This document shows positions 21,386 to 48,322 of a DNA stretch of 64,000 bases, piece after piece (within the stretch, counting starts at the first letter, position 1; each line of letters starts with the position of its first letter). The notes under the pieces are model-generated. The model worked only from the letters and a program-made list of their open reading frames with translations. It was not told where the DNA came from and did not search any database. Both the position numbers and the translations under genes were made by a program. Origin of the DNA: Nitrospirota bacterium. GTDB lineage: Bacteria > Nitrospirota > JACRHL01. Where the stretch lies: the NCBI GenBank assembly GCA_016212085.1, contig JACRHL010000003.1:321178-385177 (forward strand), in the 5' to 3' direction.

Positions 21386-21507
21386 TAGACCGGCCCGTGA
21401 CCGGCGCCCGGCGGCGCCGCCGGCGCGGGGTTGGCGCAGGGTTGGCACGGGAAATGCTATTCCTAACCTTTCGGGAGGGACAAAACCGCCCCCCGGAAGG
21501 AATCGTC

Positions 21508-21591: not shown

Positions 21592-21658
21592 CGCACCCCC
21601 CCCCCGCGCCGGCAGGCCGGGCACGGTGTACCAATCCGTACACTGTGTACACCGTGGT

Positions 21659-21801
21659 GGGCACCTCTAAAAACCTGCTACGCGGTTCGATTGCTGCGTT
21701 GGGCGGTGCTCGAACCCTCTCCTATCACCATGATATGTCTCGGGTTCTGTGCTCCGGCCACCTTGCACTCGAACCGCTCGCAACGGTTTTTAGAGGTGCC
21801 C
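21659..21801. mobile_element. 143-bp MITE, family B (intergenic copy upstream of dnaE)
   Basis: TIRs GGGCACCTCTAAAAACC / GGTTTTTAGAGGTGCCC; 4-bp direct duplication TGGT on both sides. Confidence 0.7.
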
Positions 21802-21952
21802 TGGTGCACCCGTCACGGCCACGTTCCGGCCGCCCATCGAACAGGCACGCCACCCGGACGCCGCCCGCGCCGGGTGATCCCCCCGTGGCGACGGACGCCG
21901 CGGCTCGGCTAGAATGGGGGCAACCCGCAACCCGTTGTCACCCCGGACCGCC

Positions 21953-25579
<3,627 letters not shown>

Positions 25580-26574: not shown

Positions 26575-26652
26575 ACCGCTGGACGGTACAGACCGAGACG
26601 CCCCCCGAGACGACGCCCCGCCCGGCGCCCCCGCGCCCCAGCCCCCCCGGTC

Positions 26653-26742
26653 CGCCGGCAGCCTGCCGGACAATTCCCTGCCCGACGGCAGCCCGCCGGA
26701 TGATTCGTTTTCCGACGGCAGCCTGCCGTTCGGGCCCCTGCG
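26653..26742 (+). repeat. three tandem 30-bp direct repeats, each with a near-palindrome GGCAGCCTGCC
   Basis: Units cgccggcagcctgccggacaattccctgcc / cgacggcagcccgccggatgattcgttttc / cgacggcagcctgccgttcgggcccctgcg. Confidence 0.6.
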
Positions 26743-26947
26743 CTACCGCATCGACCGCCGCGAGATCGCCTATTTAAGCTCCCTGTTCGAGTCCTACGAG
26801 GACCTGGGCGCCATCCGTACCCTGGACCCGGTGGCGGCGATCATCGAGGTTCTGTATGCTCCGGATTGCTACGCGGACGTGGTGGCGTTGATGACGGCGC
26901 TGGAGGGGGAGGTGGAGAGCCTGGAACGGATGCCACCGCTCCCGTAG
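26738..26947 (+). CDS. small conserved-looking ORF (DUF4911-like) lacking a canonical start codon
   Basis: Protein-like translation ...YRIDRREIAYLSSLFESYEDLGAIRTLDPVAAIIEVLYAPDCYADVVALMTALEGE...; no in-frame ATG/GTG/TTG upstream; CTG at 26738 proposed; family assignment from memory only. Confidence 0.3.
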   Translation: MRYRIDRREIAYLSSLFESYEDLGAIRTLDPVAAIIEVLYAPDCYADVVALMTALEGEVESLERMPPLP

Positions 26948-26968
26948 GCTGGCGCTGAATGAAATGAA

Positions 26969-27023
26969 GCCCAACGGTTCGGGGTTGCCGACGAACCATG
27001 AACGGGAAACGGGGGTGTTGGGC
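26969..27023 (+). other. attC-like site (candidate): GCCCAAC ... GTTGGGC
   Basis: Perfectly complementary 7-mers matching integron core consensus RYYYAAC / GTTRRRY, 41 bp apart, at the left boundary of the low-GC island. Confidence 0.3.
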
Positions 27024-27089
27024 TTCGCGTTGCATGCGCCAGAAGCTCGTCGATACAACGCTCCAATCGCCTGGGGATGGGAGATGGTC

Positions 27090-27815
27090 ATGAAGAAACT
27101 TGAAATTAAGAACTGGGACGGATTTTCGGGCAAGATCAGCGAAATTGAAAAGGATGCCTCGGAAAACAGCAACGCCATTCGGCTATTCCGAGGGGTTACC
27201 GATCATCAACATAACCTAGTCCCGAAAATCGGGAGACCCGGCGCGCGGAAGAATCCGGCAGATGGGACGCAACTGTCCCATTGCAAGGATGAAGAGCGTA
27301 AGATGTTGGAACTGTTCAAGAGGACGGCTCTTCCATACCTTCCATATCAGCCCAGGAATGATCTGGAGTGGCTTGCCGTTGCCCAACACCACGGAGCGCC
27401 GACCCGCCTGATTGACTGGACGGAAAGTCCCCTGGTTGCAGCGTATTTCGCGATGGAGAAGGCTGGCACGGAGGGGCAGCCGGCGATCTACGTGCTTTCC
27501 GGGACTGCGGAAGCCCCGGAGAAACTAGTTGACGAAAAGCCGGATGTCTTCTCCTGGACCGAGACGTACTGCTACCGTCCGCCACACATCAGTCCCCGTA
27601 TCCAAGTTCAGCGGAGCGTGTTCACCATACACCATTGTCCTTCGTCGGAGTTCAATCCAGATAACCTTGAAAAATGGGTGTTCCCGAAAGGTCCAACGTG
27701 CTTCGAGATCAAACGCATACTTGATCGTGTGGGCTTTAACCGAGCATCCCTATATCCAGATTTACAGGGGTTGGCAGAACACGTCGGATGGTGCTACAAG
27801 TGGGGCCGCTTCTAG
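27090..27815 (+). CDS. FRG-domain protein
   Basis: LFRGVTDHQHNLVPKIGR and AQHHGAPTRLIDWTESPLVAAYFA motifs characteristic of the FRG domain; ~47% GC versus ~70% background; ATG 27090 with gggag RBS. Confidence 0.7.
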   Translation: MKKLEIKNWDGFSGKISEIEKDASENSNAIRLFRGVTDHQHNLVPKIGRPGARKNPADGTQLSHCKDEERKMLELFKRTALPYLPYQPRNDLEWLAVAQHHGAPTRLIDWTESPLVAAYFAMEKAGTEGQPAIYVLSGTAEAPEKLVDEKPDVFSWTETYCYRPPHISPRIQVQRSVFTIHHCPSSEFNPDNLEKWVFPKGPTCFEIKRILDRVGFNRASLYPDLQGLAEHVGWCYKWGRF

Positions 27816-27880
27816 TGGCAAGTTGGGGTTCGCTCCGCTCTGCCAAACTTATATAGCTTTTCCAACTGGGAAACCGTGCT

Positions 27881-28276
27881 TTGAACATCCACGCAATCAC
27901 CGTCTCAGCCGTTAGGATCGCTCTAGCTGCTCTCATGTGCGGCGGATTGGCATCTTGCGTCCATACACGAAGTATCACCTACGAAACGACCGACAGGCCG
28001 CCGAAGCCACAAGACCGATTGATCGGGATCGTGGACTCCCAAACCGTTACTAGGCCATTCACGATCATCGGTGTTGTAGAAGGAAACGCCGGGAAGCTGC
28101 ATAGTGTCGTGGATACGTTGGAAAACCTCAAGCGTGCGGCTCGGCGGATGGGCGGCGACGCCTTGATGGATATTCAACACGGGCCCAAGGGGGGTGTGGC
28201 AGTGCCCTTCGGAAGCGGCTATGCCTATGGGAATTTAAGGGAAATCTGGTCAGCGAAAGTGATTATCTGGCAGTAG
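27881..28276 (+). CDS. putative lipoprotein (hypothetical)
   Basis: Signal peptide with lipobox LASC; ~55% GC; TTG start at 27881 (uncertain); weak resemblance to the YbjQ-like fold only. Confidence 0.4.
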   Translation: MNIHAITVSAVRIALAALMCGGLASCVHTRSITYETTDRPPKPQDRLIGIVDSQTVTRPFTIIGVVEGNAGKLHSVVDTLENLKRAARRMGGDALMDIQHGPKGGVAVPFGSGYAYGNLREIWSAKVIIWQ

Positions 28277-28279
28277 CCC

Positions 28280-28347
28280 GTTGGGCAGAGCAACGCGAAG
28301 CCAAACGCCACGGTGGCCACCCGTGGCACTCCGGGAAGGCGTTGGGC
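28280..28347 (+). other. attC-like repeats at right boundary of low-GC island
   Basis: GTTGGGC (28280-28286), GCCAAAC (28300-28306), palindrome gccacggtggccacccgtggc, GTTGGGC (28341-28347); the 17-mer GTTGGGCTTCGCGTTGC recurs inverted relative to the left boundary. Confidence 0.3.
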
Positions 28348-28451: not shown

Positions 28452-29147
28452 CTAAGGCATCGAATAAACGGTTGGGTCTTCCTGCCCTGCCTCCACAAAT
28501 CCCCTCCTCCGCAAAATGCAGCTATCGCACTGCCCGCACGCCCGGCCCTTCTCGTCCGGGTCGTAGCAGCTATGGGTCAGGCCGTAGTCCACCCCCAGGC
28601 GGATTCCCTCCCGGATGATGTCCGCCTTGGTCATGCGGATCAGGGGGGCGTGGATGGTGAAGCGGCCGCCCTCGGCGCCGGCCTTGGTGGCCAGGTTGGC
28701 CAGGTTCTCGAAGGCGCCCAGGAATTCCGGCCGGCAGTCCGGGTAGCCCGAGTAGTCGATGGCGTTGGCGCCCACGAAGATGTGGAACGCGCCCAGCACC
28801 TCGGCATAGGCCAGGGCCAGGGCCAGGAACACCGTGTTGCGCGCGGGCACGTAGGTGACCGGGATGTCGTCCCCCATGTGTTCGGCGCTGCGGCCCTTGG
28901 GCACGTCTATCGCGTCCGTCAGGGCGGAGCCGCCCAGGTCGCTCAAGTCCACCCGCACCGTCTTGTGGGCCAGGGCGCCCCCGGCCGCCGCCACCTTCCG
29001 CGCCGCCGCCAGTTCCACCCGGTGGCGCTGGCCATAGTCGAAGCTGATGGCGTAGGGGGCGTAGCCCTGGGCCTTCGCCATGGCCAGCACCGTGGCCGAA
29101 TCCAGGCCGCCGCTCACCAGCACCACCGCCTTCCGGACACCTTCCAA
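28452..29147 (-). CDS. queC: 7-cyano-7-deazaguanine synthase
   Basis: N-terminal [14 protein letters not shown]-loop, C-terminal Zn-binding CGQCDSC; proposed TTG start 29147 lies inside the adjacent MITE terminus. Confidence 0.8.
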
Positions 29148-29277
29148 AACCTGCCGCGCGCCCCGATCGCTGCGTTGGGCGGTGCCCGGCCCCTCGCCTA
29201 TCGGCTTGACATGTCTCGGGGCCTGCGCTCCGTCCGCCTTGCGCTCGGGGCGCTCGCCACGGTTTCCGATGGTGCCC
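29135..29277. mobile_element. 143-bp MITE, family B (degenerate copy at queC 5' end)
   Basis: Degenerate TIRs GGACACCTTCCAAAACC / GGTTTCCGATGGTGCCC; internal sequence matches other copies (ccgagacatgtc, gcgatcggggcgcgc). Confidence 0.6.
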
Positions 29278-29457
29278 GTCTGTCCCGTGTTCATGGGGGC
29301 GATTTTGGGCACGGGGGCGTGATCCGTCAAGCCACGCCCGGCGCCGGAACCGGCGCGGGGGCGTGGCACCGGGCCCGTGGTTGGGATACACTGGCCCCTT
29401 TCCGCGTTCCGCGCCGGGGGACACCTCCCGCCACCATATGGATGTGAGCCAACGCCC

Positions 29458-30459
29458 GTGACCACAGCGAACCCCCTTGCCGACGCCCTCCACGCATTCG
29501 CCGACGCCGTGCCGTACCGCGCCACCGGCGCCGAGACCGTGCCCCTGGCCGAGGCCGCCGGCCGCGTGCTGGCCGCGACCCTGACCGCCCCGGAGGACGC
29601 CCCGCCCTACCACCGCGCCATCGTGGAGGGCTTCGCCATACACCTGGCGGACACCAAGGAGGCATCGGCGGAGCATCCGGTGATCCTCAGGATCGTGGGC
29701 CGGGTGAATCCGGGCGACGCGGAGTTCCCGCTGTTCCATACCGGCGAGGCCGTCCAGGTGGCCACCGGCTCCATCATGCCCGACGGCCCCTTTGCCGTGG
29801 CGCGCATGTTCGAGGTGACGGTGCACGGCGGCACGGTCAGCCTGTCGCGCCCCTTCCCGCCGCGCTTCTTCATCGAGGAGAAGGGGTGCGACCACACCCA
29901 GGGCAGCCCCGTCGTCTCCGCCGGCACCCGCCTGGGCCCCGTCCACATCGGCACCATCGCCAGCCTGGGCATCGACACGGTGACGGTGGCCCGCCGCCCG
30001 CGCGTGGCCATCTTCTCGTCCGGCGACGAGGTGATCCCCCACACCTCCCCCATGCGCCCCGGCGCCATCCGCGACGGCAACCAGCCCATGCTGGCCGCCG
30101 CCGTGGCCCAGGCGGGCGCCATTCCCGCGCCCCGGGGCATCATGGGCGACGATTTCGACGGCTTCGTGGCCGCCGTGAAGGCCGCCCTGGCGGACAGCGA
30201 CATGGTGCTGATCTCCGGCGGCACCGCCGTGGGCGGGCGCGATTTTATTTCCGACCTGGTGAAGGCCGTGGGCACGCTGGTGGTGGACGGCGTGCCCATG
30301 CGATCCGGCCGGCCGCTCATCATGGGCGTGGCCGACGGAAAACCGCTGGTGTGCGTGGCGGGCCACCCGCCGGAGGCGCTGCGCGGCTTCGGGCTGTTCG
30401 GCATGGCCGCCCTGACCCGCCTCACCGGCCACGACGCCCCCCTGCCCGCCGACGGCTGA
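29458..30459 (+). CDS. MoeA-like molybdopterin-binding protein (N-terminal and MoCF-binding domains only)
   Basis: MoeA-type motifs ([28 protein letters not shown]); ~333 aa, shorter than canonical MoeA; GTG start uncertain. Confidence 0.6.
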
Positions 30460-30720
30460 CCGCCCCCCGGCCGGGCGGCCGAAAGGCGCATATTTTCGGC
30501 ATTTTACAGTCCTTGACCTCGCCCGGCGGCCTTCCGATGATGAAGGGGTAAGTCGCCGGCATGGACGCTGGCGGCGCAAAACGCTTGTTCGGAGTTCGGT
30601 CATGCTTGACCGATTGCGCACCCGCCTCTACCTTTCCTGGCACCACCCGGCCCGGCGCCGGGCCGCTTGCACCCGCCACGGGGCCGTCCGCCCCGGTCCG
30701 CCCACTTCCGGAGACCCTGC

Positions 30721-32394
30721 ATGACCATGATCAGTCACGACGTTGTGATTGTCGGCGCCGGCCTGACCGGCATGCGCGCCGCCATCGAGATGGGTCCGGG
30801 CGTGGACGTGGCGGTGATCTCCAAGGTGCATCCGGTGCGCTCCCACTCCGGCGCCGCCCAGGGGGGCATCAACGCCGCCCTGCGCGAGGAGGACTCGTGG
30901 GAGAGCCACGCCTACGACACGGTAAAGGGCAGCGACTACCTGGGCGACCAGGACGCCATCGAGATCATGTGCCGCGAGGCCCCGTCGGACATCCGCCAGA
31001 TGGAGCACTGGGGGGTGATCTTCTCCCGCGCCGACGACCGGCGCATCGCCCAGCGCCCGTTTGGCGGCGCCGGCTACCCGCGCACCTGCTACGCCGCCGA
31101 CCGCACCGGCCACGCCCTGCTGCACGCCATGTACGAGCAGGTGATGAAGCGCCGGGTGAAAGTGTACACGGAGTGGTTCCTCACCTCGCTGATCGTGGAG
31201 AACGGCGAGTGCCAGGGCGTCACCGTGCTCGACATGGCCTCGGGCGAGCTGGTGGCGGTGCGCGCCAAGGCGGTGGTGTTCGCCACCGGCGGCTACGGCC
31301 GGGTATACCTGACCAGCTCCAACGGCCTGGTCAACACCGGTGACGGCATGGCGGTGGCCTACCGCGCCGGCGCCCCGCTGATGGACATGGAGTTCGTGCA
31401 GTTCCACCCCACCACCCTCAAGTCGAACGGGGTGCTGATCACCGAGGGCAGCCGCGGCGAGGGTGGCATCCTCATCAACGCCAAGGGCGAGCGCTTCATG
31501 AGCAAATACGCCCCCAACGCCATGGAGCTGGCCAGCCGCGACGTGGTCTCCCGCTCGGAGCAGACCGAGATCAACGAGGGGCGCGGGGTGGACGGCTGCG
31601 TGCTGCTCGACCTGCGCCACCTGGGACGCGACAAGATCCTGGAGCGGCTGCCGCAGATCCGCGACCTGGCCATCAAGTTCGCCGGCACCGATCCCATCGA
31701 GGTGCCCATCCCGGTGCGCCCCGGCGCCCACTATTCCATGGGCGGCATCAAGGTCGACGTGGACGGCGCCACCCCCATGCCGGGCCTGTTCGCCGGCGGC
31801 GAGTGCGCCTGCGTGTCGGTGCACGGCGCCAACCGCCTGGGCGGCAACTCCCTGCTGGAGACCATCGTGTTCGGGCGCCGCGCCGGCACCGCCGTGAACC
31901 GCTACATCACCGGGCGCGCCATGCCCATCCCCGGCGACCACCACCTGGCGGCCCAGCGGGACCGCATCCACACCCTCATGTCCCGTTCCGGCGGGGAGCG
32001 CGGCAACCTGCTGCGCCACGAGCTGGGCACGGTCATGAACACCGACGTGGGCGTGTTCCGCGACGAGAAGGGCCTGATGGAGGCGGTGGCCAAGGCGCGC
32101 GAGATCAACGACCGCGCCCAAAGCCTCTGGGTCATGGACAAGTCGCGGGTGTTCAACACCGACCTGACCGAGGCCCTGGAGATGCAGAACGTGGCCGAGC
32201 TGGCGCAGACCATCGCCGCCGGCGCCCTGGCCCGCAAGGAGTGCCGCGGCGCCCACTACCGCAACGACCACCCGGGGCGCGACGACGCGAACTGGATGAA
32301 GCACACCCTGGCCCGGTGGACGCCCGACGGCCCCGAGCTGTCCTATTCGGCGGTGACGGTCACCAAATACCAGCCCCAGGAACGCAAATACTGA
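30721..32394 (+). CDS. sdhA: succinate dehydrogenase / fumarate reductase flavoprotein subunit
   Basis: FAD motif [10 protein letters not shown], covalent-FAD region SHSGAAQGG, catalytic HPTT and RxGxxS blocks; RBS ggag. Confidence 0.9.
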
Positions 32395-32417
32395 GCGACC
32401 CGTTTTAAGGACCCGTC

Positions 32418-33374
32418 ATGCGCATTGAAATCGAGATCGAGCGCTCCAACCCGGCGGAGGGGCAACCGGCCCGCTTCGAGACCTTCCGCGTCGAGGTGCC
32501 GCGCCACATCACCGTGCTCGACACCCTCATCAAGCTCAAGAACGAGGTGGACGGCTCCATCACCTTCCGCCGCTCCTGCCGCAGCGCCATCTGCGGCTCG
32601 TGCGCCATGCGCATCAACGGCCGTTCGGGCCTGGCCTGCGACACCCTGGTGGAGGACGAACTGCACCGCTTCGGCCACCTGCGCGTGCAGCCCCTGGCGC
32701 ACATGCCGGTGATGCGCGACCTGGCGGTGGACATGCAGCCGTTCTGGAACCGGGTGGAGGCGGTCAACCCGTGGGTGGAAACGGCCCCGGAGCGCGAGCC
32801 CGCGTGGCCCGTGGAGCGCGAGACGCTCATGGACCAGGCCGCCGTGGACGAGATGGACGACACCTCCAAGTGCATCATGTGCATGGCGTGCTTCTCCGCC
32901 TGCGAGGTTTCCGACGTGGACACCCGCTTCCTGGGCCCGGCGGCCCTGGCCAAGGCCTACCGGGTGGTGGCCGACCCGCGTGACGAGCGCAAGCAGGAAC
33001 GCCTGACGGCGTTGAACGAGGTGGGCGGCTACTGGGATTGCACCCGCTGCAACCAGTGCGTGCAGGCCTGCCCCAAGGACGTGAAGCCCATGGAGGCGAT
33101 CGTCCACCTGCGCCGCGAGGCCATCAACGCCGGCCTCACCAACACCGCCGGCAGCCGCCACATCACCGAGTTCATCAAGATCGTGCGCTCGGAAGGGCGC
33201 CTGAACGAAGGGCGCATGCCGCTCAAGATGGTGCTGAGCGATCCGAAAAAGCTGCTCTCGGTGCTGCCGCTGGCGGTGGACATGCTGCGCCACGGCAAAC
33301 TGCCCTCCCCCATCCACCCGCCCATTCCGCGGGTGAAGGAGGTTCGGCGCATCATGGACAAGAAGGCCAAATAA
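32418..33374 (+). CDS. sdhB: succinate dehydrogenase / fumarate reductase iron-sulfur subunit
   Basis: 2Fe-2S motif CRSAICGSC and 4Fe-4S/3Fe-4S clusters (CIMCMACFSAC, CTRCNQCVQACP); extended C-terminus. Confidence 0.9.
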   Translation: MRIEIEIERSNPAEGQPARFETFRVEVPRHITVLDTLIKLKNEVDGSITFRRSCRSAICGSCAMRINGRSGLACDTLVEDELHRFGHLRVQPLAHMPVMRDLAVDMQPFWNRVEAVNPWVETAPEREPAWPVERETLMDQAAVDEMDDTSKCIMCMACFSACEVSDVDTRFLGPAALAKAYRVVADPRDERKQERLTALNEVGGYWDCTRCNQCVQACPKDVKPMEAIVHLRREAINAGLTNTAGSRHITEFIKIVRSEGRLNEGRMPLKMVLSDPKKLLSVLPLAVDMLRHGKLPSPIHPPIPRVKEVRRIMDKKAK

Positions 33375-33375
33375 C

Positions 33376-34257
33376 ATGAAGCTGAAGTACGCATACTATA
33401 CGGGCTGCGCCGCCAAGGGCGTGTGCCCCGAGCTGGACCAGGCCACCCAGGCGGTGGCCCGCGCCCTGGACATCGAGCTGATCGAGCTCACCGCCGCGTC
33501 GTGCTGCGGCGCCGGCGTGATCGGCGAGCTGGAGTACGATACCCAGCTGGCCATGAACGCCCGCAACCTGGCCATGGCCGAGCAGCTCGGCCTCAACATG
33601 ATGACCATCTGCGGCACCTGCCAGGGGGTGATCTCCCGCGCCAACGTGGCGTTGCAGCACACCGCCACCCGCGACCGCATCAACCAGGGCCTGATCGGCA
33701 ACGGCGGCATCTACAAGGGCACCACCGGCGTGCTGCACCTGCTGTGGGTGCTGGTGAAGGAGTTCGGCCTGGCGCGGCTGGAGCAGGCGGTGACCCACCC
33801 GCTCACCGGCCTTAGGGTCGGGCCGTTCTACGGCTGCTACATCCTGCGCCCGTCCGAATACCTGGGTTTCGACGACCCCTACAACCCGCGCAGCCTGGAG
33901 GGGGTGATCCGCGCCCTGGGCGCGGAGCCGGTGGACTATTCCGGCCGCACCAAGTGCTGCGGCTTCCCCATCGTGCTGGAGAACGAGTCCAACGCCATGA
34001 AGATGGTGGGCGCCCACCTGCTGGAGGCGAAGGGCAACGGCGCCGACTGCCTGGTGACCCCCTGCCCCCTGTGCCACATGAACCTGGACCTGTACCAGGG
34101 CAAGGCGGAGCAGGAGATGCACCGCAAGATCGGCCTGCCCATCCTGCACCTGCCGCAACTGGTGGGCCTGGCCCTGGGCCTGGGGCCCGAGGCGCTGGGC
34201 CTGCGCCGGAACATGGTGGACGCCATGCAACTGGCCGCCGACGTGGGGGCCACCTAG
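33376..34257 (+). CDS. CCG-domain (HdrB-like) third subunit of a non-classical succinate dehydrogenase/fumarate reductase
   Basis: Two cysteine-rich CCG motifs (ASCCGAG, KCCGFP) plus CPLC; no predicted TM anchor. Confidence 0.8.
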   Translation: MKLKYAYYTGCAAKGVCPELDQATQAVARALDIELIELTAASCCGAGVIGELEYDTQLAMNARNLAMAEQLGLNMMTICGTCQGVISRANVALQHTATRDRINQGLIGNGGIYKGTTGVLHLLWVLVKEFGLARLEQAVTHPLTGLRVGPFYGCYILRPSEYLGFDDPYNPRSLEGVIRALGAEPVDYSGRTKCCGFPIVLENESNAMKMVGAHLLEAKGNGADCLVTPCPLCHMNLDLYQGKAEQEMHRKIGLPILHLPQLVGLALGLGPEALGLRRNMVDAMQLAADVGAT

Positions 34258-34281
34258 CTGCGCTTGCCGCGAGCGTTGTCG

Positions 34282-34446
34282 GGGCACCTCTATTAACCGT
34301 CGCGCGCGCCCCCTGGTGCCAGGTGCCCCGAGCGGAGCGGCACCGTTACGCCGCGCGGAACCCGAGACATATCCGGGTGATGGGCGAGGGTTCGAGCACC
34401 GCTGGGCGCGGCAATCGGGGCGCGCGGCAGGTTGATAGAGGTGCCC
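34282..34446. mobile_element. 165-bp MITE, family B (copy with internal expansion)
   Basis: TIRs GGGCACCTCTATTAACC / GGTTGATAGAGGTGCCC; no matching target duplication; abuts transposase remnant. Confidence 0.7.
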
Positions 34447-34610
34447 AGGCGTTTGGCGTCCGACACGGGCGTGCCACCGAACTTGTTGCGCCAGAGGTAA
34501 CAGCTCGCCTCCGAGAACCCGTGCCGCCGGCACAAGTCCTTCACCGGCATTCCGGCATCGGCCTCGCGCAGAAAACCGGTGATCTGCTCTTCCGAAAACC
34601 GCTTCTTCAT
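34447..34610 (-). pseudogene. IS3-family transposase OrfA N-terminal fragment (truncated by MITE)
   Basis: MKKRFSEEQITGFLREADAGMPVKDLCRRHGFSEASCYLWRNKFGG...DAKRL (HTH region of IS3/IS911-type OrfA) with GGAG RBS; reading frame then runs into the repeat. Confidence 0.55.
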
Positions 34611-34881
34611 GTCCAATCTCCTTCCGGTTCAGGGATTGGGCTCTCAATCGGGGCGCTACTGAAAGAGGGGGAGACGTCGGTCCGGAGACGTGTTGCGCCC
34701 CATGCCGCCAATCGGATGAAATAACGGACTGGCAATCCGATGTTCATGGTTGTGGGCAGGCGGGCGGTGTCTCGATCCGGTGGCTTCCGGGCCGACTCCG
34801 CCGTTGTCAGAGGGCGATTGGTGAGTCGGCGTCATCTGGCCGCGCGGCCCTTTGGCTGAAGAATTCAGGAGATGTTTCGTG

Positions 34882-35922
34882 ATGCACGACGTGGTGCAAG
34901 ACTATTACGGGCGGCAGTTGCGGTCTTCCGAAGACCTCAAAACCTCTGCCTGCTGCGATCCGACGCGGGTTCCCGCTTGGCTGAAACCGCTGCTGGCCAA
35001 CATCCACGAGGAGGTGCTGGAGCGTTACTACGGCTGCGGCCTGATCTGCCCGCCCCTTCTGGAGGGGTTGACCGTGCTGGACCTGGGCTGCGGCAGCGGG
35101 CGCGACGTGTACGCCCTGGCCCAACTGGTGGGGCCGACGGGGCGCGTGGTGGGCGTGGACATGACGGAGGAGCAGCTTGCCGTGGCGCGCCGCCACTAGG
35201 CACATCACGCGGAGCTGTTCGGCTTTTCCAACGTGGCATTCGAGCACGGCTTCATCGAACGCCTCGACGCGCTGGACCTGCCGGCGGGCGGGTTCGACGT
35301 GATCGTTTCCAACTGCGTGGTGAACCTGTCGCCGGACAAGGATGCGGTGCTGGCCGGCGTGCACCGGCTGCTCAAGCCGGGCGGCGAGTTCTATTTTTCC
35401 GACGTGTACGCGGACCGGCGCGTGCCGGACGCGGTGCGGAACGATCCGGTGTTGTATGGCGAATGCCTGGGCGGCGCCCTGTACTGGAACGACTTCCTGC
35501 GCGCCGCCCACCGGGCCGGGTTCGCCGACCCCCGGTTGCAGGAGGACCGGCCCCTGGCGGTGACGGATCCGGAACTGGCGGAGCGGGCCGCTGGTGTCAA
35601 CTTCCACGCGGCCACCTGGCGCCTGTTCAAGCTGGACGGGTTGGAGACCGCCTGCGAGGATTACGGCCAGGCGGTGGTCTACCGGGGTACCGTGCCCGGT
35701 CACCCCAACCGCTTCGCGCTCGACAAGCATCACGACATCCAGACCGGCCGGGTGTTCCCCGTGTGCGGCAACACCTGGCGCATGCTGGCCGATACGCGCT
35801 TTGCGCCGCATTTCGCGTTCATCGGGGATTTTTCGCGTCACCACGGCCTGTTCGAGGGGTGTGGCGGAGGCATCCCGTTCGACCGCGCCGCCCCGCCGGA
35901 CACGCAAAAAGGGTGCTGTTGA
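34882..35922 (+). pseudogene. arsM: arsenite S-adenosylmethionine methyltransferase with in-frame TAG
   Basis: N-terminal Cys pair (TSACCDPT), SAM motif VLDLGCGSGRD, C-terminal Cys; single in-frame amber codon at 35197-35199 (ARRH*AHHAELF), frame otherwise continuous. Confidence 0.65.
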
Positions 35923-36010
35923 TGGCGTGGCGGCGGGCAGCGGTGGCGCCAATGACCGGAACGGTGAACAGGCCGTCGCGCCCACCGGCCCTCACCGGCG
36001 GGTGCGGCCC

Positions 36011-36250
36011 GTGACGCCCTTCCTGCGCGCCGCGTTCCGGCGCCCCACCGTCCTTGGCGCCATCCAGGTGTCGGTGGTGGTGGGGAGCATGCTGAACGTC
36101 ATCAACCAGGGTGAGGCGTGGCTCCACGGCGCGTCCGTCTCCGTGGGGCACCTGATCCTCAATTATCTGGTCCCGTACGGCGTGGCGACGTTCAGCGCGG
36201 CGCGCACCGAGCTGCGCCGCTGCCCACCGGACGAGGAGGGGCATTCATGA
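36011..36250 (+). CDS. NrtS-like small membrane protein (putative nitrate/nitrite transporter family)
   Basis: ~80 aa; FLRAAFRRPTVLGAIQVSVVVGSMLNVINQGEAW...LNYLVPYGVATF resembles the NrtS family from memory; GTG start. Confidence 0.4.
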   Translation: MTPFLRAAFRRPTVLGAIQVSVVVGSMLNVINQGEAWLHGASVSVGHLILNYLVPYGVATFSAARTELRRCPPDEEGHS

Positions 36251-37054
36251 CCATCGGCCCGCGTCGTCCCAGTTCAGCGAATGATGGTCGAACCCGTGCT
36301 CCAGGGTCGGCTTGACCACCGCGAAGTAGGGTGACACGTCAAAGTCCCGGGGGGTGAACAGGCTGTGGTGGCGGACTCGCAGTACCTCCTCCACGCATCC
36401 CCGGCAGCCGGGGCGATCCGCGTCCTTCCGGCCCACCAGGGGAAGAATGGGATAGCGGATCGACTGGAACGCCTGGGCGATGAGGGTGGAGCAGATGGCG
36501 CGGGTGGGATCGCCGCCGCCCAGGGCCAGCATGCGACGCCGGAAGCGTCCGGGAACGGGCGGGGTGGGGAACAGGTAACGCGCCAGGTCCACGACGTTGC
36601 GCAGATCGTAGCGGTCGCCGATGCGGGCGATGACGAATGCGGTCACCCGCCGCACTTCCGCCGGCGTCAGGCCGATCGGCCGGCAGATGCGGGTGGGCCG
36701 ATCGGCAAAGGCGGCGATGCCCACGGCACGCACGCCGTCCAGCGGATCCGCCTCCACGAACAGGCATGACGGCTTTCCGCCTGCCTCGGCCAGGTGGGTT
36801 CCCACGAACAGGGCCGCGTGGGTCCAGGTGGACTGGGTGAGGTAGCTGATGGCGGCGCTCAGGCGCGTGCCCCCCTCCACCAGCAGCACGTCGCCCGGCC
36901 TAAGGCAGGCCAGCAGCAACTCCGGCGGGGTGGGGCGCCCCGTGCCGTCCGTGTGCACCGGACGCGTGAGGAAGCGCGCCAGTCGTGTCCCGATCTGTTC
37001 CAGGATGCCGTTCACGGGCGGAGGGGCCGGGTGGGGGGAGGTGGCGCCCCCCAC
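36245..37054 (-). CDS. YiiX/YebB-like permuted papain-fold hydrolase (putative)
   Basis: GDVLLVEGGTRLSAAISYLTQSTWTHAALFVG block resembles the permuted NlpC/P60-like YiiX family; GTG start. Confidence 0.5.
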   Translation of the reverse strand: MGGATSPHPAPPPVNGILEQIGTRLARFLTRPVHTDGTGRPTPPELLLACLRPGDVLLVEGGTRLSAAISYLTQSTWTHAALFVGTHLAEAGGKPSCLFVEADPLDGVRAVGIAAFADRPTRICRPIGLTPAEVRRVTAFVIARIGDRYDLRNVVDLARYLFPTPPVPGRFRRRMLALGGGDPTRAICSTLIAQAFQSIRYPILPLVGRKDADRPGCRGCVEEVLRVRHHSLFTPRDFDVSPYFAVVKPTLEHGFDHHSLNWDDAGRWS

Positions 37055-37068
37055 CCGGCGGGACGCCG

Positions 37069-37626
37069 CTAAGCCGGCGTCCAGGCCTCATCCGCGAAGG
37101 CGGCGTCCACCGGCGTGCCCAGCAGGCGGTTGGCGTAGTTGCTCAACGTCTTCTGGGTCACGCCCACCACCACCTCCAGCGCCTGGGCCGGGGTGTAGCC
37201 TGCGGCCAGGAAGGCCTTGTGCTCGGCCGAGTCCGCCACATGGCCGCGCTCCCGCACCACGGCACGGGCGAAATCCGCCAGGGCGGCCAGCTTGGGGTCC
37301 GCCAGGGCGCCACCGCAGCGCATGGCGTCCACCACCGGGTCCGGAGCCCCGGCCATCTTGCGGGCGATCATGGAATGGGCGGCCACGCAGTAGGGGCAGC
37401 CGTTGTCGACGCTGGTGGCCAGTAGCACCACCTGGCGCTCGACCGGCGTCAGGCTGGTGCCCTCGAAGGCGTCCGCCACGGCCAGATAGGCGCCCAGGGC
37501 GGCGGGTGCGTTGGCCAGCCCGGCAATCAGGTTCGGGACGAAGCCGAACTTCCCCTTGACGGCCTGCAAAACGGGGCGGACCGCCTCCGGGGCGGTTTCC
37601 TGGGTGTGAAACGGGTAGGTGCTCAT
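37069..37626 (-). CDS. carboxymuconolactone decarboxylase-family protein (AhpD-like)
   Basis: Two CMD-like halves with CPYCVAAH motif; strong RBS aggagaa before ATG 37626. Confidence 0.8.
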   Translation of the reverse strand: MSTYPFHTQETAPEAVRPVLQAVKGKFGFVPNLIAGLANAPAALGAYLAVADAFEGTSLTPVERQVVLLATSVDNGCPYCVAAHSMIARKMAGAPDPVVDAMRCGGALADPKLAALADFARAVVRERGHVADSAEHKAFLAAGYTPAQALEVVVGVTQKTLSNYANRLLGTPVDAAFADEAWTPA

Positions 37627-37639
37627 GGATTCTCCTTTC

Positions 37640-38197
37640 CTAGAACGGGCTGCAGGTACCGGCCGGTTTCCGCGCCGACGGCTGGCAGGCGCATGGGTGC
37701 GAAGCGGCGGCCGACGGCGGAATCACCCCCTCGCGGGCGGTCTGGTGCAGAACCGGCGCGGCCTCCACCGCCTGGGCCAGCCCCGCCAGGACGCGTTCCA
37801 TCATTCCCCCCATCATGCGGCGCATCATCATCACGTCCATGAGCCAGCCCAGCGGGCCGAACCGCACCGTGTAGTCCAGGATCATGTAGGCTTCGGCGCC
37901 GCCCGCCGCGTCGCGCACGCCGAGGGTGGCGAAGGCGCGGGAGAGGGGCATGGAACTGTCGAATATCTCCACGCGGTAGCCCTCGCCCTCGTTCCAGGCC
38001 ACCACCCGCTCGCGCAGGAAGTTGCCATCCTTCAGGTCACAGCGGCGCACGGCGCCGATGCCGCACGCTTCCGCTGTCTCCTGATGCACCGCGCTCAGCA
38101 GCGGATGGAAGCGGTGGATGTTGGTGTAGTCGGAAATCCAGCGCCACACGTCCGCTCGGGGAGCGTCGACATGGCGGGAGCGGGTGATCTGTCCCAT
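37640..38197 (-). CDS. SRPBCC-family protein (polyketide cyclase/START-like)
   Basis: HVDAPRADVWRWISDYTNIHRFHP N-terminal signature typical of SRPBCC ligand-binding fold; ATG 38197 with agga RBS. Confidence 0.65.
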   Translation of the reverse strand: MGQITRSRHVDAPRADVWRWISDYTNIHRFHPLLSAVHQETAEACGIGAVRRCDLKDGNFLRERVVAWNEGEGYRVEIFDSSMPLSRAFATLGVRDAAGGAEAYMILDYTVRFGPLGWLMDVMMMRRMMGGMMERVLAGLAQAVEAAPVLHQTAREGVIPPSAAASHPCACQPSARKPAGTCSPF

Positions 38198-38339
38198 GGC
38201 CGATCCTGTGAAAATAGGTTGTACGGAGCACCCCGGCATGCCCTGGCCGAAAGACGCGACGGGTATTTCCGACGCGGGCTCTCTCCAACGGGTGCGACAG
38301 ATCGGTTAACACCCGGCGCCCTCTTCCTATTCCCGCCGC

Positions 38340-38540
38340 TCAGGCGTGAGGCCCGCGTAGCGGGCAAGTGCGGATTCCCAACACCCGGTACAGCGGACAC
38401 CAACCCGCCAGCGCCGTGCCCAGGAGAATCACCCCGATCCACCCCCAAGGGGTCTGCGGCCCCACGAACACGATGCTGACCAGTCCGATCCCCAGGATTG
38501 CGCGGGCGGCGCGATCCAATGTTCCAACGTTCTTGTTCAT
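38340..38540 (-). CDS. DUF2892-family small inner-membrane protein
   Basis: 66 aa; NVGTLDRAARAILGIGLV...GWCPLYRVLGIRTC pattern; perfect AGGAGG RBS. Confidence 0.7.
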   Translation of the reverse strand: MNKNVGTLDRAARAILGIGLVSIVFVGPQTPWGWIGVILLGTALAGWCPLYRVLGIRTCPLRGPHA

Positions 38541-38557
38541 CGGTATCACCTCCTGGA

Positions 38558-38690
38558 GTTCCCATGCAGTGTGTTGCAAAAGCTCTTCCCCGGCTTGTTC
38601 AACTCGAAACCGGAAAAGCGTGGTTTTCCGGTTTCTCCGGCGCCAGAAAAGCCTCTCACACGGATTGTCACCCTGCGGATGCGGGCGGGT
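38558..38690. repeat. partial family A repeat element
   Basis: ttgttcaactcgaaaccggaaaagcgtggttttccggtttctccgg closely matches the central hairpin module of the other family A copies. Confidence 0.45.
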
Positions 38691-38701
38691 CTGTAGCATC
38701 G

Positions 38702-39355
38702 CTACATTGCGGCCTGGTGCCGCGCCAGGGATTCGGCATCGACGATGTGAACCCCGCCACGGAACAGCCGCACCCATCCGTTTCGTTCATACTCCTTCAA
38801 CAGCCGGCTGACGACCTCCCGGACCGTGCCAAGCTCCACCGCCAGTTGGGCGTGGGTGGCGTGAACGGTGTCATCTCCGTCACGCCCTTCCAGCAGTTTG
38901 CGGGCCAGGCGTACATGGGTGCGCTCGAAGGCCAGTTCCTGGACCCGGCGCATCAGCCCGGCCATCCGGTCGCCGATCTGAGCGAAGACGAACCGTCGGA
39001 ATCCGACAGAATCCGCGAGCAAACGGTTGAAGACGTCCCGCGGCATGACGGCGGCGCGAACCTCCCCTTCGGCGATGCCCTGGGCGGGGTAGTCGGTCTC
39101 GCCCAGGAGGCAGGCGGTGGTCAGGGTGCAGGTCTGTCCCGAGCCCACGCGATACAGCACCACCTCCCGACCCTCGTGGCTCAGGCTGGTGACCGTTACC
39201 GAACCGGACACCACGAACAGGTAGTTCCGGCATGGGTCACCGCACTGGAAGATGGCGGCTCCGGGAGGAAGCGTGATCTCCCTGACCTGGGCCAAGGCGG
39301 CCTTCCATTCGGCGTCATTCAGCGTGCGCAGGGTGGTGAACGCGTTGAACCACAT
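38702..39355 (-). CDS. Crp/Fnr-family transcriptional regulator
   Basis: cNMP-binding beta-barrel N-terminus and C-terminal HTH (THAQLAVELGTVREVVSRLL); GGAGG RBS before ATG 39355. Confidence 0.8.
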   Translation of the reverse strand: MWFNAFTTLRTLNDAEWKAALAQVREITLPPGAAIFQCGDPCRNYLFVVSGSVTVTSLSHEGREVVLYRVGSGQTCTLTTACLLGETDYPAQGIAEGEVRAAVMPRDVFNRLLADSVGFRRFVFAQIGDRMAGLMRRVQELAFERTHVRLARKLLEGRDGDDTVHATHAQLAVELGTVREVVSRLLKEYERNGWVRLFRGGVHIVDAESLARHQAAM

Positions 39356-39436
39356 GCCTCGACCTCCACGATGCCGTTGACCTGTCGGCACGTCCCCGCT
39401 TGCCGGGATGGAGCATGGGGCCGCGCCGGTAAACAT

Positions 39437-39581
39437 GGGCACCTCTATTAACCGTCGCGAGCGCCCCGAGCGCAAGGCGGACTTAAGCGGAGAACCCGAG
39501 ACATATCATGGTGATAGGAGAGGGTTCGAGCACCGCTTAGGCGCAGCAATCGGGGCGCACAGCAGGTTAATAGAGGTGCCC
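39437..39581. mobile_element. 145-bp MITE, family B
   Basis: TIRs GGGCACCTCTATTAACC / GGTTAATAGAGGTGCCC; 4-bp duplication ACAT on both sides. Confidence 0.75.
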
Positions 39582-39713
39582 ACATGTGCCAGCCTCAATT
39601 TTGAGGATACCCCCCCTCCAATCGGCCACTCCATTCCCGGCCGGGTCGGAAATAGACCGCGCCCTCCCAATTGTTCACGGAGGTGAGTGCCCCACCCGGA
39701 GACGAGGCGCCGA

Positions 39714-40412
39714 ATGACTGGACCGATCCCCCTGCTTGAGAACCTGTACGACGTGCTGCCCTCCTACCTGGTGGGCATCGGCGCCGTGGTGTCCGCCGCC
39801 GTGTGCGGCGCGGCCATCGGCTGGGACCGGGAGCGCCTGAAAAAACCCGCCGGGCTCACCACCATGGCGCTGATCTGCGTGGGGGCGGCCATCTACACCC
39901 AGGCGTCCCTGCTGCTGGGGGGCGACGCGAACGACCCGGCGCGTGTGGCGGCCCAGATCGTCACCGGCATCGGCTTCCTGGGGGGCGGCGTCATCCTGCG
40001 CGAGCGGGGCCGGGTGAGCGGGATCACCACCGCCGCCACCATCTGGGCGGTCGCGGCGGTGGGCATCGTGCTGGGTGCGGGCTATCTGGCGGGCGGACTT
40101 GGCCTTACCGCCCTGGTGCTGGGCATCCTGACCGGGGTCAAGCGGCTGGAGCATGCCATCCTGGGCCCCTGCGCCGTGGGCGCGCTGGAGGTGGCCTTCG
40201 CGCCGGACGGCGGCCGGGCCGAGCTGACCCTGCGCGCCATCCTGGACCAATACGGGATCGACGACGGCGCCTACCGCTTCACGGACCTGGCGGACGGCGA
40301 GCGCGTCCTCACGCTCAGCTACTGCCCCGTGCACCGGCACCACCGGGGCGTCGCCGCCGAACTGGCCGCCCATCCGGCTGTGCGGCGCATGGCGTCCGGG
40401 GTGTCACCTTGA
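39714..40412 (+). CDS. MgtC/SapB-family membrane protein
   Basis: N-terminal polytopic region with GAAIGWDRE and TAATIWAVAAVG motifs; alternative GTG start 39687. Confidence 0.75.
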   Translation: MTGPIPLLENLYDVLPSYLVGIGAVVSAAVCGAAIGWDRERLKKPAGLTTMALICVGAAIYTQASLLLGGDANDPARVAAQIVTGIGFLGGGVILRERGRVSGITTAATIWAVAAVGIVLGAGYLAGGLGLTALVLGILTGVKRLEHAILGPCAVGALEVAFAPDGGRAELTLRAILDQYGIDDGAYRFTDLADGERVLTLSYCPVHRHHRGVAAELAAHPAVRRMASGVSP

Positions 40413-40435
40413 TCCGGGTTTGGGGTCCATTTGCC

Positions 40436-41344
40436 ATGACGGCAGCGCTGCTTGCGCTGACCGTCGGGGCGGCGTTGGCCGAGCAACGGAACGACTTCGA
40501 CCTGACCGGCGCGCTGGTGCCGCCGGAACATATCGTGTCCGGCGGCCCGCCCCGTGACGGCATTCCCGCCATCGATCGGCCGCGCCTTGTCACGGCCGGC
40601 CATGCCGGTTTCCTGAAACCGGCCGACCGGGTGCTGGGGCTGGCGCTGGACGGCGAGACCCGCGCCTACCCCATCGCCATCCTCAACTGGCACGAGATTG
40701 TCAACGATACGGTAGCCGGCCGCCCCGTGGTCATAACCTATTGCCCCTTGTGTGGCACCGGCATGGCCTTTGATGCCACCGTGGCCGGCAGGGCGCGCCG
40801 CTTCGGCGTCTCGGGGCTGCTTTACAACAGCGACGTGCTGCTGTATGACCGCGAGAGCGAATCCCTCTGGTCGCAGATCCTGGGCCGGGCGGTCAGCGGC
40901 CCCCTGAAGGGCGAATCCCTCGCCCCGATCCCCCTGGCCCATACCACCTGGGGCGACTGGCGGCGGCGCCACCCGGACACGGCGGTGCTCTCCACCAACA
41001 CGGGGTACGCCCGCGACTACGGGCGGGCCCCCTACGCGGGCTATGCGGACAGCCCGGTGGTGTACTTCCCCACCGGTGCCGTGGACCGGCGCTACCATCC
41101 AAAGGAGCTGGTGCTCGGGGTGGCGATTGGCGGCGTGTCCAAGGCCTATCCGTTCTCCGAACTGGAGCGGGCGGAGGGAACGGTCACCGACACGCTCGCG
41201 GGCCGCACGCTGACCGTGGTGTTCGACGCCGGGAACCAGACGGCCCGGGCGCTGGACGGGGACCGGGAGATTCCCTCGGTCATCGCGTTCTGGTTCGCCT
41301 GGCACGCCTTCCATCCCGAAGGGGCGGTATTCACCGCCCCATAG
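40436..41344 (+). CDS. DUF3179-domain secreted protein
   Basis: Signal peptide; GIPAIDRP...YCPLCGTG...YNSDVLLYDRESESLWSQ pattern remembered for DUF3179. Confidence 0.6.
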   Translation: MTAALLALTVGAALAEQRNDFDLTGALVPPEHIVSGGPPRDGIPAIDRPRLVTAGHAGFLKPADRVLGLALDGETRAYPIAILNWHEIVNDTVAGRPVVITYCPLCGTGMAFDATVAGRARRFGVSGLLYNSDVLLYDRESESLWSQILGRAVSGPLKGESLAPIPLAHTTWGDWRRRHPDTAVLSTNTGYARDYGRAPYAGYADSPVVYFPTGAVDRRYHPKELVLGVAIGGVSKAYPFSELERAEGTVTDTLAGRTLTVVFDAGNQTARALDGDREIPSVIAFWFAWHAFHPEGAVFTAP

Positions 41345-41370
41345 CGGGTTACAGGGCGGTTGCCGTTCCG

Positions 41371-42561
41371 TCAGAACGCCGTGCCCGCGAACAGCCACAG
41401 CTTGTCCGTGTCGGTGCCGAAATCGTCGGCGTTGTAGGTGGCGTATGCCACGCCGACCGTGTGGGGACCGAACGCGCGGGTGGCCTGGAGGTCGGTCTCC
41501 ATGCCATAGTCGGTGCCGCCGGAGTCGGACGTGAAGACATGGTGCACGCAGGTCAGCTTCAGCCCGGATACCGCACCATTCAGGGTGACCATCAGGTCCG
41601 CCAGGCCGCCGGGCGGCGTGGTCAGGAACTGGTCCGCCCAGCCGTTGAAGGCGTGCTTGGTGGCCAGGGGCGTCTGGAAGGCGTCGGTGCCGTCACCCTC
41701 CAGCACCTCGTACCCCACCTTCACCCCCGAGCCGTTCATGGAACCGGACACCTCGGCGAGCCAATAGCTCGTGTCGCCGATGCCGGAACCGGCGAACTCA
41801 GACAGGTCCGCATACTCGGCCGTGGCGCCGAAAAGGATGGCCCCCAGCGGGTAACTGCCCGCGTAGCGGAGCCCGACCGTCTGGCTGCCCGTGGCGGGCG
41901 CGCCATCGTCGTTGACGAAGTAGCCGTATGCCGTGGCCACGCCCGCTCCGGGGACATGCCACGCCACGTTGGCCAGATGGCTGTCGTGCCGGGTATCCCG
42001 GAAGGTGACGTCGTTCACCCGCCACAGGTAGGCGTAGGTGGCCCGCACCGACGCGGACGGTACGACGTCCAGGCGGACCGCGTCGTAGGTCTGTTCGTTC
42101 TGGCGGAACCCCACGTTGCCGACGAAGCGGCCGTCGCCAAGGACGATGCGCTGGCGTCCGACGGTGGCGTCGACGCCGTATGCGGACGCCATCAGCGCCG
42201 CCCGGTTCAACTCGGTGCCGGCGGGGTCGGCCACCACCGGCCGGCCTGCCTTGCCGTTGGTGGTGCTGTTGTATTCGTCGCCCTCCACGGTGGCGACGTT
42301 CTCGAACTCCACCACGGCCCGCGCGCCATGGAACGCCCCGGTGGTGTAGCCGAGCCGGGTGCGCAGGGTGGAGGCCTGCGCCGTGTCGGCGATCCCGTCC
42401 TGGTCCACCGTTTCGTACCGGTAGCGCAGGTCGAGGCTGGGGGTTCCGCCACGGATGGCGTCCGTCAGCCCGCCTGCGCCGGCGGGCGCCGCGAAGGCCG
42501 TGGATATTCCCGCCACCATGGCGATCAGGGCCGGAAGGGATTGACGCGGATCACGGTTCAT
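41371..42561 (-). CDS. outer-membrane beta-barrel protein (porin/DUF1302-like)
   Basis: Signal peptide, alternating amphipathic beta-strands, C-terminal aromatic residue (…LFAGTAF); GGGAG RBS before ATG 42561. Confidence 0.6.
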   Translation of the reverse strand: MNRDPRQSLPALIAMVAGISTAFAAPAGAGGLTDAIRGGTPSLDLRYRYETVDQDGIADTAQASTLRTRLGYTTGAFHGARAVVEFENVATVEGDEYNSTTNGKAGRPVVADPAGTELNRAALMASAYGVDATVGRQRIVLGDGRFVGNVGFRQNEQTYDAVRLDVVPSASVRATYAYLWRVNDVTFRDTRHDSHLANVAWHVPGAGVATAYGYFVNDDGAPATGSQTVGLRYAGSYPLGAILFGATAEYADLSEFAGSGIGDTSYWLAEVSGSMNGSGVKVGYEVLEGDGTDAFQTPLATKHAFNGWADQFLTTPPGGLADLMVTLNGAVSGLKLTCVHHVFTSDSGGTDYGMETDLQATRAFGPHTVGVAYATYNADDFGTDTDKLWLFAGTAF

Positions 42562-42583
42562 GGCTCGTCTCCCTGGCGAATGG

Positions 42584-43459: not shown

Positions 43460-43461
43460 GC

Positions 43462-44936: not shown

Positions 44937-44976
44937 CTCCATCTCCTCCATGCTGGGAATCCCGGCCGGGATGGCC

Positions 44977-45109: not shown

Positions 45110-45160
45110 GATACGACACGGATGGTCGCACCGATGGAGGTTGCGGGACCGTAAGCGGGC

Positions 45161-48302: not shown

Positions 48303-48322
48303 GCGCTGGCCCTCCATGCTCA

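Follow-up and report, generated by a model that had tools for sequence, protein, structure and literature searches.

The locus described here raises the question of what kind of succinate dehydrogenase or fumarate reductase is formed when an iron-sulfur protein resembling heterodisulfide reductase subunit B (HdrB) is encoded where a haem-b membrane anchor would be expected. It lies in a 64,000-nucleotide (nt) stretch of DNA of a Nitrospirota bacterium (NCBI GenBank assembly GCA_016212085.1, contig JACRHL010000003.1, positions 321,178 to 385,177 of the forward strand), which is called the window below, and it consists of the genes sdhA, sdhB, and sdhE (30721-34257) preceded by a short MoeA-like gene. 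The sdhABE genes are likely to encode a cytoplasm-facing type E succinate:quinone oxidoreductase/quinol:fumarate reductase that is quinone-linked and peripheral on the membrane, and this grading covers both the membership in the class and the mechanism. The sdhABE enzyme is a well-conserved housekeeping enzyme of the tricarboxylic acid (TCA) cycle, belongs to a described type, and is common in Nitrospirota. An initial annotation of this DNA had called the enzyme uncommon in proteobacteria, which does not apply here: SdhE and the MoeA-like protein match MBI5136043.1 and MBI5136040.1, respectively, with 100% identity, both of these being from the same contig of a Nitrospirota metagenome-assembled genome (MAG), and the host is a member of this phylum.

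The four open reading frames (ORFs) that had been annotated at this locus were all recovered at the same positions on the + strand, and their domains were confirmed by Pfam and NCBIfam. The sdhA gene (30721-32394, + strand; longest ORF from 30667) encodes a flavoprotein subunit of 557 amino acids. It is followed by sdhB (32418-33374, + strand), encoding an Fe-S subunit of 318 amino acids with Fer2_3 and Fer4 (4Fe-4S dicluster) domains and cysteine motifs, and by sdhE (33376-34257, + strand), encoding an HdrB-like CCG subunit of 293 amino acids with two Pfam CCG domains and a ten-cysteine motif. The MoeA-like gene (29458-30459, + strand; longest ORF from 29377) encodes a protein of 333 amino acids with domains I to III. 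The G+C content at the third codon position (GC3) ranges from 0.92 to 0.97 in these ORFs, which indicates that all four are real genes. The intergenic gaps are 261 nt between the MoeA-like gene and sdhA, 23 nt between sdhA and sdhB, and 1 nt between the sdhB stop and the sdhE start, and sdhA-sdhB-sdhE is one tight operon. A candidate sigma-70-like promoter (TTGACC-17-GATGAT; 30513-30541, + strand) is located in the gap before sdhA; two such sites occur in 5.8 kb compared with 0.4 expected, and they are consensus matches with a putative function. Rfam and tRNA scans of the whole window gave no matches.

SdhA contains the Pfam domains FAD_binding_2 and Succ_DH_flav_C and passes the cutoff of the NCBIfam SdhA/FrdA profile TIGR01812 (794 bits; cutoff, 567). 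Its best PDB alignment is with the SdhA of M. smegmatis Sdh2 (E value of 3e-153), and His42, which links the flavin adenine dinucleotide (FAD), aligns with the His in the TRSHTGAAQGG segment of the solved SdhA 6LUM. Neither a twin-arginine translocation (Tat) signal nor any other signal was found on SdhA, in which the GxGxxG motif lies 11 residues from the start and the N terminus belongs to the FAD fold. The longest sdhA ORF adds only 18 residues, which are not hydrophobic, and orthologous SdhA proteins in relatives are likewise 557 amino acids long. These features agree with the earlier view of SdhA as a protein without a Tat signal and point to a cytoplasm-facing enzyme. The score of SdhA is 683 bits with the "forward" SdhA profile and lower, at 582 to 600 bits, with FrdA profiles, and it has Gln at position 47, where Gln is presumably present in Escherichia coli SdhA and Glu in E. 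coli FrdA.

Type E enzymes have been defined by an SdhB cysteine pattern for a second [4Fe-4S] cluster and by a ten-cysteine CCG-type SdhE without transmembrane helices, which replaces SdhC/SdhD (PMC2754724, PMC2680327). In the SdhB of the Nitrospirota locus, Cys 54/59/62/74 are the [2Fe-2S] ligands, and the second cluster motif (CxxCxxCxxxC, residues 152-162) reads CIMCMACFSAC. The third motif (CxxCxxCxxxCP, residues 208-219) reads CTRCNQCVQACP, at which position a solved classical SdhB has CRTTFNCTEACP. The extra cysteine corresponds to a second [4Fe-4S] cluster replacing the [3Fe-4S] cluster, as in the type E definition (PMC2754724, PMC2680327). All 12 cysteines of SdhB are invariant across seven orthologues sharing 46% to 76% identity. 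The best-matching family of SdhB is PRK12577, and its C-terminal extension (residues 235-318) is HdrC-like; residues 139-314 align with positions 18-179 of the 192 positions of the hdrC_Methbact profile, which is almost all of HdrC.

SdhE contains two CX31CCGX34CXXC motifs, at residues 11-82 and 154-233. Among 16 homologues with 57% to 78% identity, nine of the ten motif cysteines are invariant and the tenth, C82, is kept in at least 90%; the two cysteines outside the motifs are not conserved. SdhE aligns with solved HdrB structures over ~270 to 285 of its 293 residues (E value of 5e-49), and its top-scoring NCBIfam profile is that of the SdhE of 8-methylmenaquinol:fumarate reductase (MFR; 251 bits); the score with HdrB is lower (218 bits), and each score is under the respective cutoff. 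No transmembrane segment was found in SdhA, SdhB, or SdhE, the maximum 19-residue hydropathy being 1.58. The duplicated CCG domain and the ten-cysteine motif thus bear out the annotation of a nonclassical enzyme in which an HdrB-like subunit substitutes for the haem-b anchor. Taken together, the subunits may be read as modules, namely, SdhA, an SdhB composed of a [2Fe-2S] domain and an HdrC-like module, and an HdrB-like module.

NCBIfam profile scores and the named nearest cluster representatives were used as a stand-in for a labelled phylogeny. Close homologues number in the thousands, and most are from Nitrospirota; the close relatives with organism names are Nitrospirota MAGs, including Leptospirillia, Nitrospiria, and Nitrospira. 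Beyond the Nitrospirota cluster, the closest named relatives are from a Dehalococcoidia MAG, Gloeobacter kilaueensis, and Thermovibrio ammonificans (50% to 53% identity), and further relatives are cyanobacterial or from Aquificota, Chloroflexota, and Veillonella. The order queC(-)/MoeA-like/sdhA/sdhB/sdhE is kept in five related Nitrospirota loci (L005 to L009; 60% to 80% identity), with queC not detected in L008. In more distant Nitrospirota loci, sdhB and sdhE are adjacent and near a fumarase or malate dehydrogenase gene, or the genes are dispersed, with sdhA located elsewhere and no MoeA-like gene present. A single Nitrospira genome was examined, and in it sdhB is apart from sdhE.

A membrane-anchor gene next to the operon, which would have told against the nonclassical annotation, was not found; no plausible anchor or SdhF gene is present among all ORFs of at least 40 amino acids in the 29- to 35-kb region, where hydrophobicity is confined to antisense shadow ORFs of sdhA and sdhB with low GC3. 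Similarly, the 64-kb window contains no paralogue of sdhA, sdhB, or sdhE and no second complex II. No SdhF candidate lies downstream of sdhE, which in relatives adjoins a convergent hydrolase gene. SdhF is also missing from the bacterial members of the type (PMC2680327) and therefore does not define the bacterial branch.

In the proposed mechanism, SdhA would convert succinate to fumarate and back at its covalently bound FAD, and electrons would be routed in SdhB from the [2Fe-2S] cluster through the [4Fe-4S] cluster to a second [4Fe-4S] cluster in the place of the [3Fe-4S] cluster. SdhE would be docked by the HdrC-like C-terminal extension of SdhB, and its two CCG-domain Fe-S sites would exchange electrons with the membrane quinone pool. 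Because SdhE has no transmembrane helix, the complex would be peripheral, on the cytoplasmic side of the membrane. An enzyme that is quinone-linked and peripherally attached to the membrane is favoured because the studied three-subunit bacterial homologues are quinone-linked; the quinone partner, the association with the membrane, and the direction of the reaction in the cell are accordingly predictions by analogy with these characterised enzymes. The electron donor of the Wolinella MFR is 8-methylmenaquinol (PMC2680327), and a knockout of the HdrB-like Slr0201 in Synechocystis was reported in a preprint to abolish succinate dehydrogenase activity as well as the entry of electrons into the plastoquinone pool (bioRxiv 10.1101/2021.09.27.461999).

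Several points weigh against this quinone-linked type E enzyme. If the host, like some Nitrospirota, uses a high-potential methyl-plastoquinone, fumarate reduction by the quinol would be thermodynamically unfavourable (PMC13147460, PMC12324825). In addition, SdhA, SdhB, and SdhE each score under every equivalog-level NCBIfam cutoff, which indicates that the Nitrospirota clade differs from the enzymes of Sulfolobales, Campylobacterota, and methanogens. Moreover, SdhE has no surface segment that is clearly more hydrophobic than in soluble HdrB, with part of which its most hydrophobic stretch can be aligned, so that the membrane attachment of SdhE is predicted rather than demonstrated.

The Nitrospirota that fix CO2 by the reductive TCA cycle must reduce fumarate. 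The sdhABE enzyme may act either as a dehydrogenase or as a reductase, with the forward-SdhA score and Gln47 standing on one side and the need of the reductive TCA cycle on the other. Plastoquinone derivatives are used by some Nitrospirota (PMC12324825), and a 2026 survey considered the quinones of Nitrospirota too oxidising for fumarate reduction and a novel fumarate reductase likely (PMC13147460). An anchor-less, HdrB-like electron entry module is an obvious candidate for such an unrecognised Nitrospirota fumarate reductase.

These considerations bear on the best-surviving alternative, in which sdhABE would encode a soluble thiol- or disulfide-linked fumarate reductase resembling TfrAB, with the HdrB-like subunit oxidising a low-molecular-weight thiol or a protein dithiol in the service of the reductive TCA cycle. 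The near-full-length alignment of SdhE with HdrB, the presence of all ten cluster cysteines, the lack of an evident transmembrane helix or clear amphipathic anchor, and the need for a novel fumarate reductase suggested by the survey are all consistent with it, and the fused TfrB profile is matched by both SdhB (167 bits) and SdhE (28 bits). However, the TfrB cutoff of 385 bits is missed, as are those of TfrA (515 bits; cutoff, 718) and HdrB (TIGR03288, 218 bits with a cutoff of 345, and NF041780, 74 bits with a cutoff of 450). Moreover, the Fe-S and CCG parts are encoded by separate genes rather than by a TfrB-type fusion, and no thiol-metabolism gene conserved beside the operon was found in the related and distant loci. 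To our knowledge, synthesis of the thiols coenzyme M (CoM) and coenzyme B (CoB) is not known in bacteria. The studied three-subunit bacterial homologues are quinone-linked (PMC2680327; bioRxiv 10.1101/2021.09.27.461999). A TfrAB-like enzyme is thus unlikely, and it is equally doubtful that the SdhE of Nitrospirota drives fumarate reduction with a low-potential donor other than a quinone, for example, a protein dithiol or the two forms of a thiol/disulfide pair. If it did, sdhABE would be the "missing" fumarate reductase of the reductive TCA cycle deduced for Nitrospirota in recent genome surveys. The initial annotation had left the partner as thiol or quinol; with the TfrAB and HdrB cutoffs missed, no positive evidence supports the thiol, and the homologues favour the quinone.

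Another alternative concerns the gene in front of the operon, and it holds that the short MoeA-like protein is a dedicated Sdh accessory factor, for example, in cofactor insertion or flavinylation. The MoeA-like protein contains MoeA_N and MoCF_biosynth domains and no MoeA_C, and it is under every NCBIfam MoeA cutoff (183 bits versus 440). It aligns with residues 22-327 of the PDB MoeA structure 1uz5 over ~300 residues (domains I to III; E value of 1.5e-51). The protein had been described as truncated, without the C-terminal domain; MoeA_C is indeed missing, but the gene is not the product of a truncation and belongs to a conserved family of ~333 amino acids. The top 120 matches in a search of 5.8 billion proteins are all ~330 to 370 amino acids long and contain MoeA_N and MoCF_biosynth only. 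The alignment ends at about residue 335 of E. coli MoeA in all 10 short-family members aligned, in which domain IV of the E. coli protein (residues ~336-411) is missing. A MoeA_C domain hidden by a frameshift in the 261-nt gap was considered and rejected, as the orthologues stop at the same place and the family is ~333 amino acids long; the gap after the gene in relatives is 144 to 158 nt, too short for a domain of ~75 amino acids. T100, D142, E188, D228, and D259 of E. coli MoeA are invariant in the family alignment, and D59 is replaced by Glu. The functional importance of these five residues is assumed from mutagenesis of E. coli MoeA, and domain IV is taken to hold the active-site cleft residues R350 and S371. 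The short family shares domains I to III with MoeA, the gephyrin E-domain, and Cnx1E but has motifs of its own. The comparisons indicate that the MoeA-like protein is complete and belongs to a widespread family without domain IV.

A role of this protein in Sdh maturation would fit the order queC/MoeA-like/sdhABE kept in the five related MAG loci. However, these genomes are collinear across the region, including queC, the hydrolase, the M23 peptidase, and trpS, and the adjacency of the MoeA-like gene and sdh is therefore uninformative. In addition, the 261-nt gap with its promoter-like site separates the MoeA-like gene from sdhA, complex II has no molybdenum cofactor, and the distant Nitrospirota sdhB-sdhE loci are without a MoeA-like gene. 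Many members of the short family are gammaproteobacterial, e.g., from Candidatus Tenderia electrophaga, and sdh is not nearby. Genomic context in Gammaproteobacteria and distant Nitrospirota thus gave no functional link between the two, and an Sdh accessory role is very unlikely; the MoeA-like gene is probably unrelated to Sdh and transcribed independently. We know of no characterisation of the short family, which perhaps deserves a study of its own. In the two gammaproteobacterial loci examined (L012, 6119-6892; L013, 6401-6976), a gene without a Pfam match (257 and 191 amino acids, respectively) lies directly upstream of the short MoeA gene on the same strand, and these genes could encode a partner of the family.

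The possibility that the CCG protein is a genuine heterodisulfide reductase subunit B located beside sdhAB by chance rests on its match with solved HdrB and on its NCBI product name, [quoted passage not shown] (MBI5136043.1). This is hardly credible given the 1-nt spacing between sdhB and sdhE, the adjacency to sdhB kept across Nitrospirota loci in which SdhB identity is 46% to 76%, and the missed HdrB equivalog cutoff; furthermore, no HdrA- or HdrC-type genes occur in the window, SdhB itself carries the HdrC-like module, and JGI names the homologues of SdhE as the third subunit of Sdh/Frd. The tight three-gene operon is clear genomic evidence that the "HdrB family" protein of NCBI is the third subunit of Nitrospirota complex II, and it corrects a systematic misannotation under that name. 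A classical complex II with anchor genes that were overlooked or are encoded at another site in the genome is just as implausible, since, although the SdhB core (residues 2-237) passes the cutoff of the classical SdhB subfamily PRK05950 (244 bits; cutoff, 228), the best PDB matches of SdhA are classical SdhA proteins, and the view of the genome spans 64 kb, no anchor-like ORF occurs in the 29- to 35-kb region and none is annotated in the window, the oppositely oriented hydrolase gene adjoining sdhE in relatives leaves no space for an anchor gene, and the extra cysteine and C-terminal extension of SdhB are type E traits.

The surroundings of the type E operon have a number of features of their own. 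The window has a G+C content of ~70% and contains the chromosomal housekeeping genes cobT/cobS, recO, era, guaA/guaB, dnaE, accA, and trpS. Directly downstream of sdhE, ~15.9 kb (34258-50160) is missing from the relatives L005 and L009, in which the hydrolase, M23 peptidase, and trpS genes directly follow sdhE; the same genes are found at 50161-54641 in the window. The insert opens with a remnant of an IS3-type OrfA (HTH_Tnp_1; 34293-34616, - strand) and carries genes for two Crp/FNR regulators, MgtC, two cytochromes c, and an EamA transporter, together with a mer cluster (47129-49989). The mer cluster comprises MerR on the + strand (~49.5-49.99 kb) and, on the - strand, MerT, a MerP-like heavy-metal-associated (HMA) protein, MerB (alkylmercury lyase), MerF, and a small protein that is rich in Cys and contains a GDCCVFC motif. 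The cluster showed no merA, and a pyridine nucleotide-disulphide oxidoreductase gene is present at 18332-19786. An S-adenosylmethionine-dependent methyltransferase (Methyltransf_31) is split into two ORFs, one for the N-terminal half of the domain (34852-35199) and one for the C-terminal half (35233-35922), and its N terminus is ArsM-like by eye; the split reflects either a pseudogene or an error in the assembly.

Two families of dispersed repeats were found. The first is a palindromic repeat of ~145 to 165 nt with the terminal inverted repeats GGGCACCTCTATTAACCG ... CAGGTTAATAGAGGTGCCC, present in seven copies in the 64 kb (21654-21803, 24463-24606, 29135-29287, 34282-34447, 39437-39583, 44985-45109, and 48323-48466). 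The four copies that were folded each form a full-length single hairpin as RNA, with energies of -67 to -108 kcal/mol, and the MoeA-like/sdhABE block lies between two copies that are inverted relative to each other. No copies were found in the 13 related loci, which indicates that the repeat is a lineage-specific expansion of an element resembling miniature inverted-repeat transposable elements (MITEs). The copy at 24463-24606 lies in frame inside dnaE (21914-25579) and leaves the ORF open, adding ~49 residues (850-898, GGTSIDRRERSECKADGAQDPRHVQWMGEGPSTAQRSNRGAQQVDRGHL) within the match to the helix-hairpin-helix domain profile; in this it resembles the palindromic elements of Rickettsia that are inserted within coding sequences. 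The second family, with copies of up to 130 to 167 nt, occurs at 18156-18322, 21220-21389, 38594-38640, and 50001-50167, includes one tandem partial copy and one short fragment, and contains a GTTGAAAAAGTCC..GGACTTTTTCAAC hairpin internally; one copy, at 50001-50167, lies exactly at the right edge of the 15.9-kb insert. In addition, a low-GC islet (26700-28300; 0.615 versus ~0.70) lies between accA and queC and contains a gene for an FRG-domain protein (26964-27815) and a small ORF (27881-28276) with no Pfam match at an E value of ≤1e-6. Three imperfect 30-nt tandem units at 26651-26750 precede the genes of the islet.

Among known systems, the classical complex II of types A to D has a membrane anchor of SdhC/SdhD and an SdhB with a [3Fe-4S] cluster, whereas neither is present in the window and the third SdhB motif has four cysteines. 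The methanogen TfrAB and HdrBC proteins have an SdhA-like flavoprotein, a ferredoxin-like Fe-S module, and HdrB-type CCG domains in common with the Nitrospirota enzyme, and the C-terminal half of SdhB and SdhE align with the HdrC and HdrB of methanogens, respectively. However, the methanogen TfrB is a single fused polypeptide of an enzyme using CoM-SH and CoB-SH, whereas the Nitrospirota genes are separate and without HdrA. A large sequence distance separates the Nitrospirota enzyme from the type E enzymes of Sulfolobales, and SdhA scores 595 bits with PRK06452 (cutoff, 862), which is presumably the Sulfolobales-type SdhA profile. The Sulfolobales enzymes (Acidianus ambivalens and Sulfolobus SdhABEF) share with it the FAD-linking His, the SdhB pattern for a second [4Fe-4S] cluster, the ten-cysteine SdhE without transmembrane helices, and the cytoplasmic orientation (PMC2754724). 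They differ from it in having SdhF and a host outside the bacteria, and the quinone of the Nitrospirota enzyme would not be caldariellaquinone.

The bacterial comparisons are closer. The MFR of Wolinella succinogenes and Campylobacter jejuni has the same sdhABE order, the type E SdhB cysteines, and the ten-cysteine SdhE, and it also lacks SdhF (PMC2680327). In contrast to the Nitrospirota protein, which has no signal and has the FAD-linking His, the SdhA of MFR has a Tat signal of ~40 residues, is periplasmic, and is without this His (PMC2680327). The MFR equivalog cutoffs are missed by SdhA (541 bits; cutoff, 1100), SdhB (156 bits; cutoff, 600), and SdhE (251 bits; cutoff, 500). The cyanobacterial sdh genes are presumably dispersed in the genome, unlike the operon of the Nitrospirota bacterium, and the cyanobacterial enzyme acts as a dehydrogenase, whereas the Nitrospirota enzyme may run in either direction. 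Like the latter, the cyanobacterial Sdh with Slr0201 (Synechocystis) is bacterial and cytoplasmic and has a CCG-type third subunit; it feeds a plastoquinone-type pool, and the SdhE homologue of Gloeobacter, with 51% identity, is one of the nearest relatives with an organism name beyond Nitrospirota.

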